From contig OY776510.1 of NCBI GenBank assembly GCA_963675665.1, positions 832,001 to 896,000 on the forward strand: DNA of 64,000 nt, read 5' to 3'. Below are positions 4,235-63,916 of the stretch, piece by piece. Below the pieces are notes generated by a model. The model saw only the letters and a list, made by a program, of their open reading frames with translations. It ran no database searches and was not told the DNA's origin. Both the position numbers and the translations under genes were made by a program. This DNA comes from Spirochaetia bacterium. Lineage in GTDB: Bacteria; Spirochaetota; Spirochaetia; UBA9216. How positions within the stretch are numbered: the stretch's first letter is position 1; each line of letters opens with the position of its first letter.

Positions 4235-4454
4235 TCCTACAAAAACTGCTTGCCACGGACGGCAGGTTACGGAGAATGAAGTTTAAAAGTCTTATTTTTA
4301 AACTTCAAGATAAAAAAGAACATGGATGTTCTTTTTTTATCCGTCCTGCAAAAAATCCCTGCCATGGATGGCAGGTTACAGTGAATGAAGTTTAAAAAGT
4401 CTTATTTTTAAACTTCAAGATAAAAAAAGAACACGGATGTTCTTTTTTTATCCG
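4235..4454 (-). mobile_element. Two tandem copies (109 and 111 bp) of a triple-hairpin non-coding element inserted at the ybaB Shine-Dalgarno site
   Basis: TCCT cores at 4235, 4344 and 4455 delimit two near-identical units. Each unit has three hairpins: cctgccatggatggcagg; tgaagtttaaaaa..tttttaaacttca; gataaaaaaagaaca-cgga-tgttctttttttatc. Confidence 0.8.
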
Positions 4455-6013
4455 TCCTGCACAATTTCACCGCGAAAAACCTTCTTAACCGCATCAACCT
4501 GTTTGTTCAGATTATGCTGTCCTTCATCGATTTCCCTTGTTTTACCTGTCTGAACAACTTCAACTTCGATAATAAACTTTTTGCCTGTAATATCCGTTAA
4601 CGCGTCCTGAATAATGTTTCGATCGTTTTTTACAACCGATGCGGTATAGCCGTTATCAAAAGAAAAACTTATACTGTCGCCGGATTGCCGCCAGCCGACA
4701 GCCTGGTCTATTGATGCTGCAAGAGTCAGTTTCTTTTTACGTATTGCATTAAGCACCGCGTCCCTCTGTTCCGATGTCAGTCCGGTTTCAGAATGATGAA
4801 TTTCCGGTTGGACAGATTCGGTAACAAAAGGATTTTCGTTTTCATCTTCCGCTTTTTCTTCAAATTCTCCGGCGGCAATATTCTGTTTTAATTTTTCCAG
4901 TCTGTCATAAACCTCTGCAGGCGAAATCCATGCAGCAAGATCGGATAATTGCGCAAGGACCAGTTCAAGTTCAAACCTCGGATTAATTGAATAACGGACA
5001 TCCCTGTAAAATGAAAAAATCAGTTCGAGAGCTTTTTCAAGCTGGCTCTTGTTGAAAGCGTTCACGGTTGTTTCTGAATAACGCGCGCGGGCATATCCAA
5101 GCAATGATTCTTTTTCTATTCCGCAGCGTATAAATAAAAGGCTCCTGAAGTATTCGGCCAAATCCACAGCAAATTGTTCAATTGAGACTCCGCCTGCAAT
5201 TATTTCAGAACTCAGTTCCATGACCTTTACGGAACTGCGGGAAGCCATTGCTTCAACTATGACATTCATACTGTCGAGACCGACAAGACCAAGCTTTTCC
5301 CGAATCTTTTCCAGGGTAACCGTACCGTCTGAAAATGCCGCAACCTGGTCAAAGAGGGTATAGGCGTCGCGCATGGAACCGGTTGCTTCTTTGGCAATCC
5401 AGAACAGCGCATCGTCTTCCGCGTCTATTTTCAGCTCTTCAGCCGCCAGCTGAAGGCTGTTTTTTATTTCCTCAAGTGAAATAAGCCTGAAATTAAACTG
5501 CTGGCAGCGGCTTCTTATTGTAGCAGGGACCTTGTGGATTTCGGTTGTTGCAAAGATAAAGATAATATATGGCGGCGGTTCTTCTATTGTTTTTAAAAGC
5601 GCATTAAACGCCGAATTAGACAGCATATGAACTTCGTCTATTATGTACACTTTATAGCGGCAGGAATTGGGCGCGAAAAGAACTTCATCCTTAATCTCGC
5701 GGATGTCGTTGACCGAGGTATTCGAAGCACCGTCAATCTCTATTACATCGAGAGCATTGCCGCGCGCAATTTCCGTACAGGCAGAACATTTTCCGCAGGG
5801 TGTCGGAGTAGGTCCTTCTTCACAGTTAACCGCCCGGGCCAGAATACGTGCGGCCGAGGTTTTTCCGACGCCGCGCGGACCCGAAAAAAGATACGCATGG
5901 GCTATTCGGCCTGCCTTTATTGAATTCTTTATTGTTGATACGACGAATTCCTGGCCGACAAGATCTTCGAACATGCCGGGACGCCGCCGCGTTGCTGTTA
6001 CTTCATATGCCAT
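4448..6013 (-). CDS. dnaX: DNA polymerase III subunit gamma/tau
   Basis: GPRGVGKT Walker A, IIDEVHML, SRC motif, C4 zinc finger. Start placed at MAYEV. Confidence 0.97.
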   Translation of the reverse strand: MAYEVTATRRRPGMFEDLVGQEFVVSTIKNSIKAGRIAHAYLFSGPRGVGKTSAARILARAVNCEEGPTPTPCGKCSACTEIARGNALDVIEIDGASNTSVNDIREIKDEVLFAPNSCRYKVYIIDEVHMLSNSAFNALLKTIEEPPPYIIFIFATTEIHKVPATIRSRCQQFNFRLISLEEIKNSLQLAAEELKIDAEDDALFWIAKEATGSMRDAYTLFDQVAAFSDGTVTLEKIREKLGLVGLDSMNVIVEAMASRSSVKVMELSSEIIAGGVSIEQFAVDLAEYFRSLLFIRCGIEKESLLGYARARYSETTVNAFNKSQLEKALELIFSFYRDVRYSINPRFELELVLAQLSDLAAWISPAEVYDRLEKLKQNIAAGEFEEKAEDENENPFVTESVQPEIHHSETGLTSEQRDAVLNAIRKKKLTLAASIDQAVGWRQSGDSISFSFDNGYTASVVKNDRNIIQDALTDITGKKFIIEVEVVQTGKTREIDEGQHNLNKQVDAVKKVFRGEIVQDG

Positions 6014-6083: not shown

Positions 6084-6185
<102 letters not shown>

Positions 6186-6191
6186 AATATA

Positions 6192-6276
6192 CGGAGAGAG
6201 GGGGATTCGAACCCCCGGTACCTTTCGATACACACGCTTTCCAAGCGTGCGCCTTCGACCGCTCGGCCATCTCTCC
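6192..6276 (-). tRNA. tRNA-Ser(GGA)
   Basis: GGAGAGA acceptor, CACGC-TTGGAAA-GCGTG anticodon arm, long variable arm, GGTTCGAATCC. CCA is not encoded. Confidence 0.96.
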
Positions 6277-6329
6277 TGAAGGTTATTTTTTACTGTTTCA
6301 GGTTGAACATAAACCGTAAACAGTGCTGA

Positions 6330-6514
6330 TCGGAGAGACAGGGATTCGCCTTCCGGCTCCACACATCCCGTGCGTATCCTTCAGGCCGCCTCTTTCGCTG
6401 GCGGCCGGCATCCGTGCCGTCCTCTCCTCGCCGGCTCGGCGCTCATTCGGTTCGAATCCCGTATAAACTATATTAAAGTATTAATAAAATATAATACTTT
6501 AAACAGTTGTTTCT
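6330..6514 (-). repeat. 185-bp tRNA-linked element bounded by a 19-bp duplication of the tRNA-Ser(CGA) 3' end
   Basis: tcggagagacagggattcg occurs at 6330-6348 and 6515-6533. The interval holds an inverted T-arm copy (ggttcgaatccc at about 6449-6460) and GC-rich hairpins. Confidence 0.7.
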
Positions 6515-6515
6515 T

Positions 6516-6603
6516 CGGAGAGACAGGGATTCGAACCCTGGGTACAGACGAGCTGTACAACGGCTTTCGAGGCCGCCCGATTCAACCACTCTCGCATCTC
6601 TCC
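6516..6603 (-). tRNA. tRNA-Ser(CGA)
   Basis: GCGGC-CTCGAAA-GCCGT anticodon arm, long variable arm, T-loop. Confidence 0.96.
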
Positions 6604-6628
6604 CTGAAACCCCGTAAGGGAAAAAAAG

Positions 6629-6702
6629 TATACCCAAGAGGACTCGAACCTCCGACCTTTAGGTCCGCAACCTAACGCTCTATCCAACTGAGCTATGGGT
6701 AC
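6629..6702 (-). tRNA. tRNA-Arg(GCG)
   Basis: GTACCCA acceptor, TTAGG-TTGCGGA-CCTAA anticodon arm, GGTTCGAGTCC. Confidence 0.95.
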
Positions 6703-6859
6703 CTGTAAAACTTTCAAAAATCGGTTATTTTTGAAAGTTTTTTGAATTAAAACGACCTGAAGACAGAACGTTTTAATTCCAAGTTCTTCCGGTAGAACCG
6801 TTAAAAATTGAAATTTTTAACGGGCCTTCGGAATTATAACACAAAAATATATAAAAAAA

Positions 6860-6946
6860 CGGAGAGGGAGGGATTCGAACCCTCGGTACCGTTGCCAGTA
6901 CAACTCCTTAGCAGGGAGCCCGATTCAACCACTCTCGCACCTCTCC
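6860..6946 (-). tRNA. tRNA-Ser(GCT)
   Basis: GCTCC-CTGCTAA-GGAGT anticodon arm, long variable arm. Confidence 0.96.
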
Positions 6947-6968
6947 GGTTAAACCAAATATAAAAATA

Positions 6969-7053
6969 CGGAGAAGGTGGGATTCGAACCCACGGAACCT
7001 TTCGGCTCAACGGTTTTCAAGACCGCCTCCTTCGACCGCTCGGACACCTCTCC
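6969..7053 (-). tRNA. tRNA-Ser(TGA)
   Basis: GCGGT-CTTGAAA-ACCGT anticodon arm, long variable arm. Confidence 0.96.
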
Positions 7054-60149: not shown

Positions 60150-61406
60150 TTACACAAGTCCGGGAAAATCAAGAGTGGCAAAATAATCATTCGGCGTTTC
60201 TGCACGTCTGATCTGAACTACTGATCCGTCGGGTTCAAGCAGCAGTTCAGCGCTTCGTAATTTTCCGTTGTAGTTGAATCCCATTGCATAACCATGTGCT
60301 CCTGTATCATGGAACACAAGGACGTCTCCACGTTCGAGATGCGGCAGTTCCCTGTCAATTGCGAACTTGTCGTTGTTCTCACAGAGGGAACCTGTTACGT
60401 CAACCGGGCCTTCGACAGGTTTATTTTCCTTGCCTATCGGTGTGATATGATGATATGCCCCGTAAAGCGCAGGTCTCATCAGGTTGGCCATTGAGGCATC
60501 CATACCGATAAAAGTTTTATATGTCTCTTTTCTGTGAAGAACCTTTGATACCAGGTAACCGTATGGCCCCATAATCATTCTTCCGGATTCCATTACGATT
60601 CTCAGTGCCGAAAGGCTGTTTTTCTCAATTTTTTCTTTATAAAGAGCTTTTATTCCGGCAGAGACTTTTGCAAGATCTACGGGCTCTTCTTCCGGTTTGT
60701 ACGGAATACCTATACCGCCGCCGAGATTAACAAAATCAAAGGTAATACCAAGTTCCCTGTTCAAATCGAGAACAAGTTGAAAAAGAATATCGGCGGTTTC
60801 AACAAAATATTCCCAGTTAAGCTCATTTGAGGCCACCATTGTGTGAAGGCCGAAATGTTTAATGCCTTTTTCTTTTAATCTCCGGTATCCTTCAAAAAGC
60901 TGTTCACGTGTAAAACCGTATTTGGCCTCTTCCGGCTTGCCTATAATAACATTTCCTTCCTTCAGGGGGCCCGGGTTGTACCTGAAGCAGATTCCGTCGG
61001 GAATACCGGCTGCTTCTTCCAGATAATCGATATGACTGATATCATCGAGATTAATGATTACGTCAAGTTGCCTTGCTTTCAGATATTCTTCAGCCGGGGT
61101 GTCGTTTGACGAAAAGAAAATCTCGTTTCCTTTCAGTCCGACTGCATCGGCGAGCATCAGTTCAGGCAAAGACGAACAGTCAGCTCCCATTCCTTCTTCC
61201 CTGAGTATTTTCATAATATGCGGGTTCGGACAGGCTTTTACAGCAAAAAAGTTTTTAAATCCGCCCGGAACCCAGTTGAAGAGCTTATAGAGCTTTTTTG
61301 CATTTTCCCGTATCGCTTTTTCATCATAAATATGAAATGGTGTAGGGTATTTCTCAATAATCTTTTTAAGCTGCTCTTCTGAAAAGGGAAGCGTTTTAAT
61401 GCTCAT
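60150..61406 (-). CDS. lysA: Diaminopimelate decarboxylase
   Basis: FAVKA, NLGGG, ESGR, RPALYGAYH, GSLCENND, GAHG. Confidence 0.93.
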   Translation of the reverse strand: MSIKTLPFSEEQLKKIIEKYPTPFHIYDEKAIRENAKKLYKLFNWVPGGFKNFFAVKACPNPHIMKILREEGMGADCSSLPELMLADAVGLKGNEIFFSSNDTPAEEYLKARQLDVIINLDDISHIDYLEEAAGIPDGICFRYNPGPLKEGNVIIGKPEEAKYGFTREQLFEGYRRLKEKGIKHFGLHTMVASNELNWEYFVETADILFQLVLDLNRELGITFDFVNLGGGIGIPYKPEEEPVDLAKVSAGIKALYKEKIEKNSLSALRIVMESGRMIMGPYGYLVSKVLHRKETYKTFIGMDASMANLMRPALYGAYHHITPIGKENKPVEGPVDVTGSLCENNDKFAIDRELPHLERGDVLVFHDTGAHGYAMGFNYNGKLRSAELLLEPDGSVVQIRRAETPNDYFATLDFPGLV

Positions 61407-61468
61407 TTGGATCTCCTATAAAAAGTCAACCACAAGCTAAAAATATAAGCTTATGATCTGGTCGGATA

Positions 61469-62581
61469 TCAACCGACCATTACAGCTTCCCATGCTGCTG
61501 CCTGCATTTCCCTGTATTCTTTTCTAAAAGCCATTTTCATCGGATCAAACGGCTCTCTGGTTTTTAAAATTGTATATACCAAAGTGCTCATCTTGCGGGC
61601 GGCAGCTATTACACTCTTACCCGAGCCTTTCTGCTTCTTCATCGCTGCATACTTCGTCATTATTCGGTACGTCCCGGTCTTCTTTTGCATACGAACCATT
61701 CCCATCACCATCTGTACGAAGGCTGTCCTCAGTTCTACAGGCCCACGCTTTGTTATATGTCCATGATGTATTGTCATATTTGAGTTCTGCACCCATGGCA
61801 CAAGCCCGGCGTTTGCTGCATATTTCTTCGCACTATCATATCTGCCGATATCGTCTGTATAGGCTCTTACTGTTGCTGCTGTTATTAGACCCACGCCTGG
61901 TATTGTCTGCAGAAGCTCAACATCTTCATCGTCCTCCACAAGCTCAGCCAAAACCTTTTCAAGCTGCTTGACTTGCGATGCCTGATTATCTATCATATCC
62001 AGTAACGGTATTACCGTTTTGGCAGCGCTTCCGTAAAAGTCGTGGTCCTCGAGACCGTTCAGGATTCGCTGCCTTTCTTTTTTACTCTGCAGCTGTCCGC
62101 GTTTGGTCTCTATTCCATAACCAAGTAATAAGCCATGCACCTGGTTCTTTAACGACACAACAGATTTTACCAGTATCGACCTGGATTTCAGCACCCTTCG
62201 AATATCCTCACTCTCTTGGGAACATAATATCGATTCAGGCAGCATGTCTTTCTCAAGAAACTCCGCCAGGGTGCGTGCATCATGTTTGTCTGTCTTTTTT
62301 ACAGATTCATTCACTACCTTGAATTTCAAAGTATTCACTACAACCACTTCGACTCCAGCCTTTAACAGTTTATTGCGGAAATAACGGGCATTCCCGGTTG
62401 TTTCCACCGCTGCTCTCAACTCATATTCCTCTTCACAATATTCATCCAGCATTTTCAGAAATGCTCCATAACCATTTCCGCTGGTCGGATACATTCCCAA
62501 TTGATCAATTTTTCGGTCTTCACTTAAAAGGCATACTGTAAACTGCGTTTTGTGAAGATCCACGCCAATACTCATCTTCAT
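61469..62581 (-). CDS. IS110-family DEDD transposase / bridge recombinase
   Basis: RuvC-like GVDLHK, AVETTG and KTDKHDA (DEDD). Tnp domain TIPGVG, AGLVPWVQNS, ITKRG, AAARK. Confidence 0.96.
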   Translation of the reverse strand: MKMSIGVDLHKTQFTVCLLSEDRKIDQLGMYPTSGNGYGAFLKMLDEYCEEEYELRAAVETTGNARYFRNKLLKAGVEVVVVNTLKFKVVNESVKKTDKHDARTLAEFLEKDMLPESILCSQESEDIRRVLKSRSILVKSVVSLKNQVHGLLLGYGIETKRGQLQSKKERQRILNGLEDHDFYGSAAKTVIPLLDMIDNQASQVKQLEKVLAELVEDDEDVELLQTIPGVGLITAATVRAYTDDIGRYDSAKKYAANAGLVPWVQNSNMTIHHGHITKRGPVELRTAFVQMVMGMVRMQKKTGTYRIMTKYAAMKKQKGSGKSVIAAARKMSTLVYTILKTREPFDPMKMAFRKEYREMQAAAWEAVMVG

Positions 62582-62616
62582 GTTCTATCTCCAATAGTTT
62601 GAAGCAGTGCCTATAC

Positions 62617-62776
62617 GGTGAATTGTTCCATTCTCCTATCCGGTCTCGCAGACCATTGAATGTTTCGGTTACGGCTCTTCAATCTCCTAAACGGTCTCGC
62701 GGACCAGTAAAAATGTCGAACAGTAACCTTACTGCCTCAATTAAAGTTAAGGCAGTATATCAATTCACCAGCTCAT
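62617..62776 (-). ncRNA. Putative bridge RNA in the IS110 left (upstream) non-coding end
   Basis: Closing stem ggtgaattg/caattcacc and a 5' hairpin tactgcct..aggcagta. Two internal-loop arms are capped by GGTC(C/T)GCGAGACC, each followed by TAGGAGA. Confidence 0.72.
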
Positions 62777-62794
62777 GAAGACTTTTTATCATTC

Positions 62795-62937
62795 CTCCTA
62801 TAAAAAGTTCCCGCATGGATGCGGGTTTTAAGAGGTGAGGTTGTAAAGCTAAACTGCGTTTGCAGTTTAAACTGCGTTGCAGTTTTTGTTTTACAACTTC
62901 AAAATGATAAAATTGCATGGAAGCAATTTTATCATTC
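62795..62937 (-). mobile_element. 143-bp triple-hairpin non-coding element with the same termini as the adjacent IS110
   Basis: Left end AGGAG|GAATGATAAAA and right end ACTTTTTATAGGAG are identical to the IS ends. No ORF. Confidence 0.82.
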
Positions 62938-63004
62938 CTCCTGAAATTATTTACGGCCCGCTTTTTAAAAGCCGTTATACATGAGTATTTATGTTAATGA
63001 CCGG

Positions 63005-63916
63005 TTAGGTCAATACCTTTACTTTGTTCTTTTTAAGCACCAGTGAGCCCTCGGGGCCTCCGGCGTCCTGTGCTACCGCGGCGCATTTTATTCTAAAAAG
63101 AAACCATGTCGGCGGCAGGTTTTCTCCCGACAGGGCTTCATAGTTTCCCTGTCCTTTCGAGATAATAATATCGGCCGAATTGAGTCTTGTAATAAAACCT
63201 GGATCACATTCCGATAAAACGGTTCCCGCTGTTGCCGCACCGGAACTGATTGTTTCAACTAATTTGTCTATGCCCACTGTTCTGGTGTCTTCCAACAGCG
63301 CGTCATTGAGCGCCGGTCCGCCGCGGACAACGAAAGTAATCTTTTTATCGGGAAAATCGGTAAGCAGGGTTTCAATGAAAATCCGGTCGAAGACAATCTC
63401 GCCGGCGTTGTCTCCGAGATAAATGATATTTTCAGCCTGTTTCAAATCAATGTGGAAATCCTCGAGCATGAAAAGCCCGTCATTGAAATCGTCTCCGTTT
63501 TCTATATGCTGAAAAAGCGGCTGGTCAAGAATTTCTTCAAGCGCTTCATTTAAATCAAGTGAAACCTTTGCTCCGAAGTCAATCAGGTTGCCTGCAATTG
63601 CAAGTGCAAGCGCTTCTGCAAACGGGTTATCAGCCTCTGTGACGCGTTTTTTCAGCTGCGGATACAGCTTCATTGCCGCTTCATTACTTGCGACCTTTAT
63701 TTTTTTATACGGATCGGCGATTCCTGTAGCTTCCTTAATCTTTACGGTAAGATAGGCGGCCATTTCGGGCGGGGTTACAGCGTCGGCAAGATCAGCAAGA
63801 TTTTCCAGCAGTTTATGAAATTCAATGCTTAATTCTTCTTCACCGATGCCGCACATGCGGCTGATCTGAAGATACTGTTTAAGCAGGCATACTACACAAT
63901 CAGGTTTGGCTATCAT
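63005..63916 (-). CDS. DUF89/ARMT1-like damage-control phosphatase
   Basis: CVVC N-terminus, DPYK, GNLID, DNAGEIVFD, LNDA, KGQGNYE. Confidence 0.93.
   Translation of the reverse strand: MIAKPDCVVCLLKQYLQISRMCGIGEEELSIEFHKLLENLADLADAVTPPEMAAYLTVKIKEATGIADPYKKIKVASNEAAMKLYPQLKKRVTEADNPFAEALALAIAGNLIDFGAKVSLDLNEALEEILDQPLFQHIENGDDFNDGLFMLEDFHIDLKQAENIIYLGDNAGEIVFDRIFIETLLTDFPDKKITFVVRGGPALNDALLEDTRTVGIDKLVETISSGAATAGTVLSECDPGFITRLNSADIIISKGQGNYEALSGENLPPTWFLFRIKCAAVAQDAGGPEGSLVLKKNKVKVLT

Follow-up and report, generated by a model that had tools for sequence, protein, structure and literature searches.

A probable bridge RNA with IS1111-like guide order in an IS110-family insertion sequence found between Shine-Dalgarno sequences and start codons

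The window examined here is a 64,000-nucleotide (nt) stretch of a Spirochaetia bacterium genome (assembly GCA_963675665.1, contig OY776510.1, positions 832,001 to 896,000 of the forward strand), and the positions given below count from its first letter. Toward the far end of the window, immediately upstream of a gene resembling lysA, lies an insertion sequence (IS) of the IS110 family, and the region upstream of its transposase gene had been proposed in an earlier note to specify a bridge RNA whose target loop spells a ribosome-binding site (RBS) and a start codon. Positions 62617-62769 of the minus strand probably do encode a genuine bridge RNA, or seekRNA, of an IS110-family IS with IS1111-like ends, a reading to which we assign a probability of roughly 0.85. 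The IS and its surroundings are composed as follows, with the ends, the right flank and the RBS read directly from the sequence:

61413-62794, minus strand: IS110-family IS, 1382 base pairs (bp), delimited by the points at which the flanks of 15 copies diverge
61469-62581, minus strand: transposase of 370 amino acids, IS110 family (PF01548, PF02371, NF033542)
62780-62794, minus strand: left end, comprising the GAATG extension and the 10-bp subterminal inverted repeat ATAAAAAGTC (62780-62789)
61413-61431, minus strand: right end, comprising the subterminal repeat GACTTTTTAT (61418-61427) and then AGG-AG
61404-61412, minus strand: right flank ATCCAA and the lysA ATG (lysA gene, 60150-61406)
62795-62937, minus strand: 143-bp mini-element (miniature inverted-repeat transposable element, MITE) bearing the IS ends and adjoining the IS in tandem on its upstream side (nhmmer E = 3.5e-25)
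62938-62942, minus strand: original RBS of lysA, AGGAG, now to the left of the MITE

Fifteen full copies of the IS, 100% identical to one another, are carried by this genome, and comparison of their flanks places the start of the left end at GAATGATAAAAAGTC and the close of the right end at GGTTGACTTTTTATAGGAG. As delimited here, the IS leaves out the AGGAG on its left and includes the one on its right; under the IS1111 convention, in which the core AG is assigned to the left end, its extent becomes 61415-62796. The subterminal inverted repeat (ATAAAAAGTC/GACTTTTTAT) is perfect over 10 bp, the extreme ends lack inverted repeats, and the terminal extensions are AGGAATG (7 nt) on the left and AGG (3 nt) on the right if the AG core is taken as part of the left end. 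Non-coding stretches of 213 nt upstream and 55 nt downstream border the transposase gene. A -10-like TAAAAA is situated inside the left end (62783-62788) and a -35-like TTGACT inside the right end (61424-61429); when the right end is joined to the left end, the junction reads TTGACT, a 17-nt spacer and TAAAAA, pointing in the sense direction of the RNA. Junction promoters of this layout are known from both IS621-type and IS1111-type elements.

The N-terminal DEDD (RuvC-like) domain, PF01548, is matched by residues 5-155 of the transposase (E = 9.3e-18; 64.9 bits, cut-off 29), the C-terminal transposase (Tnp) domain, PF02371, by residues 222-303 (E = 1.4e-17), and the NCBIfam model NF033542, "IS110 family RNA-guided transposase", by 216.8 bits against a cut-off of 140. 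The match to the structurally solved relatives ISCro4 and IS621 is weak (E ~1e-15) and confined to the C-terminal domain. In the alignment with ISCro4, one serine of the transposase falls opposite the first S of ESGSS and is the putative catalytic residue.

The position of the IS relative to host genes is uniform. AGGAG lies directly to the left of the IS in all 15 copies, and to the right an ATG follows after 5 nt (two copies), 6 nt (12 copies) or 7 nt (one copy), in each case opening a same-strand open reading frame (ORF) of 93-729 codons, such that the IS points in the direction of the gene. At the site in the window, this gene is a diaminopimelate-decarboxylase-like lysA with the Pfam domains of pyridoxal-phosphate (PLP)-dependent decarboxylases. 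A mini-element resides directly upstream of the IS in five of the 15 copies. By comparison with the 15 of 15 IS sites, only 137 of the 790 occurrences of TAGGAG in the genome have an ATG at 5-7 nt, and the proportion is 17-24% for TAGGAG or TNTAGGAG. Because the right end of the IS itself finishes in AGGAG, the target gene keeps a Shine-Dalgarno (SD) sequence at the original distance, and the AGGAG of the right end (61413-61431) is the putative SD sequence handed to lysA.

Relatives of the element were collected with a scan guided by the protein, in which each species was represented by one genome and which returned 80 related loci. Fifty-one of these were examined and yielded 33 distinct upstream regions; the others were nine more copies from one Marispirochaeta assembly, which were restored for the comparison of insertion sites, one partial locus, and 19 loci that were partial or at ≤41% identity. 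The left end (AGGAG)GAATGATAAAAAG is common to nearly all relatives, as is the right end TTGACTTTTTATAGGAG, after which an ATG comes at 3-9 nt, the exceptions (L050, L073, L074, L075 and L077) being degenerate or cut by contig ends. For the analysis of covariation, an alignment of 28 sequences was used that comprises the window copy and 27 of 32 distinct relatives; one near-duplicate and five sequences with truncated RNA regions were left out. The predicted RNA consists of the following parts:

62617-62769, minus strand: bridge RNA core, a closing helix around a 5′ hairpin, a target arm and a donor arm (from fold and covariation)
62769-62761 with 62625-62617, minus strand: closing helix of 9 bp, GGUGAAUUG with CAAUUCACC, compensatory changes in 5 of 9 pairs
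62732-62755, minus strand: 5′ hairpin, compensatory changes in 7 of 9 pairs
62667-62728, minus strand: arm 1, the target-binding loop and its basal stem, compensatory changes in 3 of 10 basal-stem pairs and 2 of 5 inner-hairpin pairs
62706-62715, minus strand: 5′ strand of the target loop, CAUUUUUACU, complementary to the sense strand of spacer and ATG (right flank), with which it is predicted to pair
62693-62705, minus strand: inner hairpin of the target loop, GGUCCGCGAGACC, G-C to A-U in 5 sequences and U-A to C-G in 7
62684-62691, minus strand: 3′ strand of the target loop, UUUAGGAG, the same sequence as the sense-strand left flank (SD), which would pair with the antisense strand
62658-62662, minus strand: 5′ strand of the donor loop, CAUUC, the complement of the first 5 nt of the element (GAATG)
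62642-62654, minus strand: inner hairpin of the donor loop, GGUCUGCGAGACC, 3 of 4 pairs compensatory, in 12, 11 and 1 sequences
62633-62639, minus strand: 3′ strand of the donor loop, AUAGGAG, then AAUG; identical to the last 7 nt of the right end and invariant in 28 of 28 sequences

The minimum-free-energy fold of 62582-62800 (minus strand) corresponds to this architecture at -64.9 kcal/mol, compared with a mean of -47.8 (standard deviation 3.85) for 200 dinucleotide shuffles, none of which folds as well (z = -4.44). When the hand-drawn structure is applied to the 28-sequence alignment, 89.3% of 1259 cells are standard pairs; column shuffles reach 83.5 ± 0.4% (0 of 500 as high), and sliding the partners by 1-3 columns reduces the value to 26-44%. 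Both sides have changed in 20 of 45 pairs, distributed over the closing helix (five), the 5′ hairpin (seven), the base of arm 1 (three) and the inner hairpins (two and three), the latter being near-identical between arm 1 (GGUCCGCGAGACC) and arm 2 (GGUCUGCGAGACC). RNAalifold predicts 33 pairs from the same alignment, 16 of them with compensatory changes. Two short helices behave differently. The CAU/AUG helix that can be drawn in arm 1 displays zero compensatory changes, and so does the CAUUC/GAAUG helix in arm 2, which also contains 8-9 unpaired cells; CAUUC therefore behaves as a guide and not as a stem. The earlier note had worried that these five bases might be a stem, a concern that the covariation does not support, and the parts that it had described (5′ hairpin, arm 1, arm 2 and 9-bp stem) are all found where it had placed them. 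The folding and covariation analysis that it had called for is likewise in line with its proposal, as are the domains of the transposase and the match to NF033542, which support the assignment of the RNA to an IS110-family element. A search of 61000-63200 against Rfam 15, at E values up to 10, matched no bridge RNA family, and its best matches fell on the mini-element.

Directly 3′ of AGGAG in both loops (62680-62683 and 62629-62632), nearly all relatives contain A-N-U-G, which resembles the start of the left end (GAAUG) with one base missing and whose second base varies freely. Conceivably, this could be a handshake-like segment. In a Lentisphaeria relative, the donor loop holds the joint with one extra G in place of A-N-U-G.

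The donor loop can be compared with the ends of the element that carries it. AUAGGAG, its 3′ strand, corresponds to the right end (...TTATAGGAG), a sequence kept across relatives, and since this putative guide is invariant it cannot covary. The 5′ strand can: all 16 elements with a GAATG left end carry CAUUC, and among the 12 elements with other left ends six are fully complementary (GCACG/CGUGC in three, GCAUG/CAUGC in two and GUAUG/CAUAC in one), three need only G-U or G-T pairs, and three are mismatched. With G-U and G-T pairs counted, the donor 5′ guide tracks the left end in 25 of 28 sequences, and a metagenome set adds two further covarying cases (GAGUG/CACUC and GUAUG/CAUAC). Covariation thus shows the predicted 5′ guide of the donor loop to read the first 5 nt of the element, and the match of arm 2 to the donor joint ATAGGAG/GAATG, as originally proposed, is borne out.

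A similar comparison can be made between the 3′ strand of the target loop and the DNA to the left of the element. The three bases preceding AGGAG in this strand vary by family, being UUU here and UAC, CAA, UUA, AAA and others elsewhere. Across 61 sites representing 25 families, the guide is identical to the left flank at position -6 in 57, at -7 in 45 and at -8 in 28. The summed matches (130 of 183) compare with 70.7 ± 11 when families are permuted, and a single consensus per family gives 52 of 75 matches compared with 31.8 ± 3.3; in both tests, 0 of 5000 permutations are as good. In the present genome, T occupies position -6 at 13 of 15 IS sites versus 150 of 893 background sites, defined as AGGAG-N3-10-ATG-ORF sites of the same genome (Fisher p = 4e-9). 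A pattern scan of metagenomes found 119 loci, with the RNA present in 14 and both guide and left flank obtained in eight, and in these eight elements guide and flank agree at -6 in 8/8, at -7 in 7/8 and at -8 in 2/8. Covariation of this kind shows the candidate guide to read at least NN-AGGAG, with position -8 weak, and it is on this SD side (25 families, 0/5000) that guides and target sites change together in the way the earlier note had looked for.

The 5′ strand of the target loop consists of CAU, five variable bases and N-U in 27 of 28 sequences, and, taken as a guide, this strand specifies five bases followed by ATG immediately beyond the core. CAU is constant but for one relative and, because it is nearly invariant, cannot show covariation. 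The five variable bases can be compared with the right flank. Anchored on the ATG, they match the 5 nt before it at 148 of 280 positions, versus 112 ± 12.8 upon permutation (0 of 3000 reach it), a test that is confounded by base composition, with AT-rich guides occurring in AT-rich hosts. Among seven slides this register scores highest (the other six give 86-134), and it keeps that rank when the two largest, AT-rich families are removed (70 of 155 versus 45-57). Anchoring on the SD sequence instead, at offsets 0-3, gives a weaker result (127-144 of 300; 29-316 of 3000 permutations do equally well). Spacing between SD sequence and ATG ranges over 3-9 nt in a set of 56 sites, 29 of which have 6 nt, and in the present genome spacings of 5-6 nt are found at 46 of 57 IS and mini-element sites versus 364 of 836 other AGGAG-ATG sites (Fisher p = 5e-8, chi-square p = 3e-6), a background that includes false gene starts. 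The real spacings differ from the encoded 5 nt, and therefore contiguous pairing in the manner of IS621 cannot hold; if pairing of CAU with the ATG is real, it must make use of one or more flexible extra bases next to the crossover. Overall, the odds that the CAU of the target loop pairs with the start codon appear to be about even. The claim that arm 1 encodes both SD sequence and ATG thus stands on its SD side, and the ATG side has moderate support from the register peak and the spacing.

A number of observations weigh against the proposed reading of the RNA, in addition to the confounded composition and the imperfect background just described. The gap encoded between SD sequence and ATG is 5 nt, and the real sites mostly have 6 nt here and 3-9 nt in relatives. 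The 5′ guide of the IS itself fits its right flanks poorly, with 2 of 8 matches at the lysA site without a bulge; the earlier count of 9 of 16 matches over this whole site, likewise without a bulge, is correct. In 21 of 28 sequences, CAU can pair with AUG across its own loop. Selection against insertions within genes could alone produce the association with ATG. On the left, the flanks of nine of the 15 copies read TAUAGGAG, a mismatch to the target guide UUUAGGAG at position -7. These nine flanks (TATAGGAG) are the same as the element's own right end and donor guide, from which it seems likely that the IS lands preferentially just downstream of the ends of earlier elements; TAT occurs at 53 of 893 background sites, and many such sites are mini-element ends. 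The sequence alone cannot place the exchange point within AGGAG. Finally, contigs from four runs of one study, compared with 60900-63300, revealed no circle junction and no empty site, and contigs cannot exclude a circle. Contigs of three of the runs, one in each, join 61432 to 62762 with six other letters in between, the shorter side being 20 letters; this joint may represent a tiny deletion derivative of the IS or may be misplaced.

The alternative that best survives these comparisons is one in which the bridge RNA reads only the SD side by pairing, with CAU and the five following bases being mainly structural, CAU pairing with AUG to close the loop, or reflecting an A/T-rich preference. The ATG would then adjoin the insertion merely since start codons follow SD sequences and other insertions have been lost. 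This explanation, to which we give a chance only somewhat short of even, would accommodate the spread of AGGAG-ATG spacings over 3-9 nt in the 56 sites, the potential for CAU/AUG pairing in 21-27 of 28 sequences, the level of cognate right-flank matches (just 45-53%) and the distant Lentisphaeria relative that has no obvious CAU in the corresponding strand. A target guide of only 4 nt is, moreover, on record for IS621 (PMC11208160). The alternative accounts less readily for the peak of matches at the exact ATG-anchored register among seven slides, for the enrichment of spacings of 5-6 nt (46/57 versus 364/836), and for the location of 15 of 15 IS copies at ATG sites when 17-24% of TAGGAG or TNTAGGAG occurrences are so placed. 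In addition, CAU is kept in 27 of 28 sequences, whereas the A/U that would be its partner (column 147) is not, seven sequences being unpaired.

A more drastic alternative is that the region is a mere structured 5′ leader of the transposase mRNA, acting in translational control or stability, with the protein picking the target. Its location directly upstream of the SD sequence and ATG of the transposase would suit such a leader, as would the lack of an Rfam family match, but bases inside the loops change in step with the flanking DNA beyond the element and also with its left end, as those of a leader would not, and the IS110 family is known to be RNA-guided (PMC11208160 and PMC11187229); we regard this explanation as very improbable. 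Still more improbable is a functional RNA transcribed from the opposite strand: the helices do fold on both strands, but such an RNA would have the core at the 5′ ends of its guides, the donor loop before the target loop and a 3′ hairpin, unlike any described bridge RNA or seekRNA, the G-U pairs of the sense strand (U-G at columns 97/154 in 15 sequences and at 111/137 in 27) would become C-A mismatches, and the putative junction promoter faces the sense direction.

Taking the bridge RNA reading as a basis, a pathway for the element can be proposed. On the model of IS621, ISEc11 and ISEc21, excision would release the element as a circle, in which the junction of right and left ends would create the promoter (TTGACT, 17 nt, TAAAAA) from which the RNA and the transposase are transcribed. 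The 3′ strand of the target loop (NN-AGGAG) would set the SD side of the target, and in the donor loop AUAGGAG would pair on the right-end side and CAUUC with the opening GAATG of the left end. The odds are about even that the 5′ strand of the target loop (CAU and five variable bases) pairs loosely with the ATG and the 5 nt before it, one or more extra bases beside the crossover being tolerated. Exchange would take place at or inside the AGGAG common to target and donor, its final AG (CT on the opposite strand) being the most likely point and one favoured by the 7/3 extensions obtained with AG in the left end. The element would then settle between SD sequence and ATG in the direction of the gene, and its right end would provide a new AGGAG at an unchanged distance from the ATG, leaving the gene with an RBS and the site open to renewed targeting. 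Tandem arrays of mini-elements and IS copies would arise because insertion regenerates the target site, and mini-elements having just the two ends would be mobilised in trans.

The mini-elements, to which the earlier note had already referred, are numerous. With an nhmmer profile derived from 16 seeds, 72 genomic matches are obtained at E ≤ 1e-3, corresponding to elements of 100-157 bp with the IS ends and three covarying hairpins of variable stem sequence. Among 49 right ends that do not adjoin a further element, 42 have within 3-10 nt an ATG whose ORF runs to 60 codons or more. Tandem arrays reach up to five members, as at G000:C1:1652333-1652891 (five mini-elements) and 2973058-2973366 (three). 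The five-member array starts with GATTT and not with GAATG, to which the present donor guide would not match, suggesting an earlier or different helper element. The loops of the first and third hairpins often read CUUCC, CCUCC or CAUCC (for example at 62915-62925, minus strand) and resemble anti-SD sequences; together with the AGGAG end, such loops raise the possibility that mini-elements might modulate translation of the downstream gene.

Some of these mini-elements coincide with a known RNA motif. The gathering score of Rfam TD-2 (RF03162), 48.7 bits, is reached at 18 places in this genome, on the strand opposite to the downstream gene, and three of them lie in the window:

4358-4456, plus strand: TD-2 match, 67.5 bits
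4249-4345, plus strand: TD-2 match, 54.9 bits
25802-25895, minus strand: TD-2 match, 49.3 bits

The mini-element at 62847-62940 scores only 35.2 bits for TD-2, which is below the gathering score. TD-1 and TD-2 were introduced in 2007 as orphan candidate structured RNAs of Treponema denticola, and TD-1 was reported to be "usually in a 5′ regulatory configuration" (PMC1950547), a position that fits elements located between SD sequence and ATG. In the same paper they are described as RNA motifs of one species and not as mobile mini-elements, and the link to the IS is drawn here: TD-1 and TD-2 look like non-autonomous elements of this IS clade. Elsewhere in the window, a cluster of five tRNA genes beside a small signal recognition particle (SRP) RNA (6084-7053, minus strand) is ordinary.

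The related loci are taxonomically scattered, with labels that include Spirochaetia, Oceanispirochaeta, Syntrophales, Desulfobacterales, Gracilibacteria and Dehalococcoidales, as well as Dysgonamonadaceae, Treponema, Leptospira, Lentisphaeria and others. Loci labelled Gracilibacteria, Syntrophales, Desulfobacterales, Desulfobulbaceae and "delta proteobacterium" (L018, L019-L028, L038, L042, L043 and L071) carry transposases that are 73-77% identical to the present one, and a plasmid of Thiospirochaeta carries one with a 76.6% match. Identity at this level across phyla could reflect either recent transfer or mis-binned contigs. In the Lentisphaeria relatives (33-35% identity), the element closes with ...TTTTATCATAGGAG and an ATG comes after N5-8; one group among them has an upstream non-coding region of 277 nt. 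A Leptospira locus (L072) has different guides, is present in a single copy and has flanks that do not match its guides, and is uninformative.

Taken together, these features would describe a cross-phylum IS clade with a bridge RNA hard-wired to SD sequence and AUG, the one signal common to all bacterial genes, a clade which inserts in sense orientation into 5′ untranslated regions (UTRs), regenerates its target and has given rise to mini-elements equivalent to TD-1/TD-2. This combined proposition is tentative, and we rate its prospects of holding in full as slightly worse than even. If it is true, sense insertion in 5′ UTRs would make the element transcribable from host promoters, the replacement SD sequence would render insertion nearly harmless, and mini-elements would accumulate in tandem as 5′-UTR modules. 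A universal target would also explain how transposases can be 73-79% identical across Spirochaetia, Syntrophales, Desulfobacterales and Gracilibacteria. The RNA would be a natural bridge RNA whose target is not a repeat but the translation start region, a functional signal, with the target gene kept translatable; and if the ATG is read across a flexible gap, it would involve a mode of pairing not described for IS621. Bridge RNAs and seekRNAs constitute a new tool for genome writing, in which insertion just 5′ of start codons could serve for promoter traps or tagging. For annotation, caution is advisable, as many seemingly native RBSs in such genomes would be element ends.

Insertion between RBS and start codon has precedent in the actinobacterial elements IS900, IS901, IS902 and IS116. 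These share with the present IS the gap between SD sequence and start codon and a strict orientation, and differ from it in that they oppose the target gene, whereas the present IS is co-directed. Within the literature searched, there was no description of a bridge RNA for IS900, nor of a bridge RNA aimed at an SD sequence, and the supplementary tables of the 2024 papers may list such targets. Where an SD sequence was mentioned alongside bridge RNAs of the IS110 family, it concerned a riboswitch. The RBS mentioned by Siddiquee et al. belongs to a cargo gene and not to an insertion site (PMC11187229).

The IS1111 family is defined in PMC11187229 by subterminal inverted repeats, usually of 11-13 bp, flanked by terminal extensions of 7 bp (left) and 3 bp (right), and in its seekRNAs the complement of the top strand lies 5′ of the complement of the bottom strand. 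Like the family members ISEc11, ISKpn4 and ISPa11 treated there, the present IS has subterminal inverted repeats and, if AG is counted on the left, 7/3-bp extensions. It also resembles IS1111 elements as characterised in that text in creating no target duplication, in inserting in a single orientation and in its circle-junction promoter, which is here predicted from the joined ends, and the order of its guides is that of the IS1111 seekRNA, as CAUUUUUACU, the complement of the right flank, precedes UUUAGGAG, the complement of the antisense left flank. Three differences can be set beside these similarities (PMC11187229): the RNA region is upstream of the transposase gene here and downstream in IS1111 elements, with few exceptions such as ISMtsp17; the repeat measures 10 bp and not the usual 11-13; and the target is a translation start region here as opposed to attC, repetitive extragenic palindromic (REP) sequences and transposon ends. 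The likeness to IS1111 concerns ends and guide order.

Comparison with IS621, as it is described in PMC11208160 and PMC11208158, reveals a complementary set of shared features. In both systems, the RNA resides in the left end, upstream of a recombinase with DEDD and Tnp domains, and proceeds from a 5′ hairpin to a target loop and then a donor loop, each loop containing two guides for opposite strands that meet at a dinucleotide, with CT as the core on one strand and the 3′ ends of the guides facing the core. In the IS621 loops, according to the same papers, the 5′ strand reads like the left DNA and the 3′ strand like the complement of the right DNA. Both loops of the present RNA show the opposite order with respect to the two sides of the element, and the IS621-type layout assumed in the earlier note accordingly gives way to one like that of IS1111-type seekRNAs. 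The present RNA further departs from the published account of IS621 in having a covarying closing helix around all three arms, in the 5 nt (AGGAG) shared by target and donor as opposed to 2, and in a donor 5′ guide that leaves the core uncovered. With IS1111-type ends and guide order combined with an RNA located upstream of the transposase gene, the element helps to link the two described layouts.

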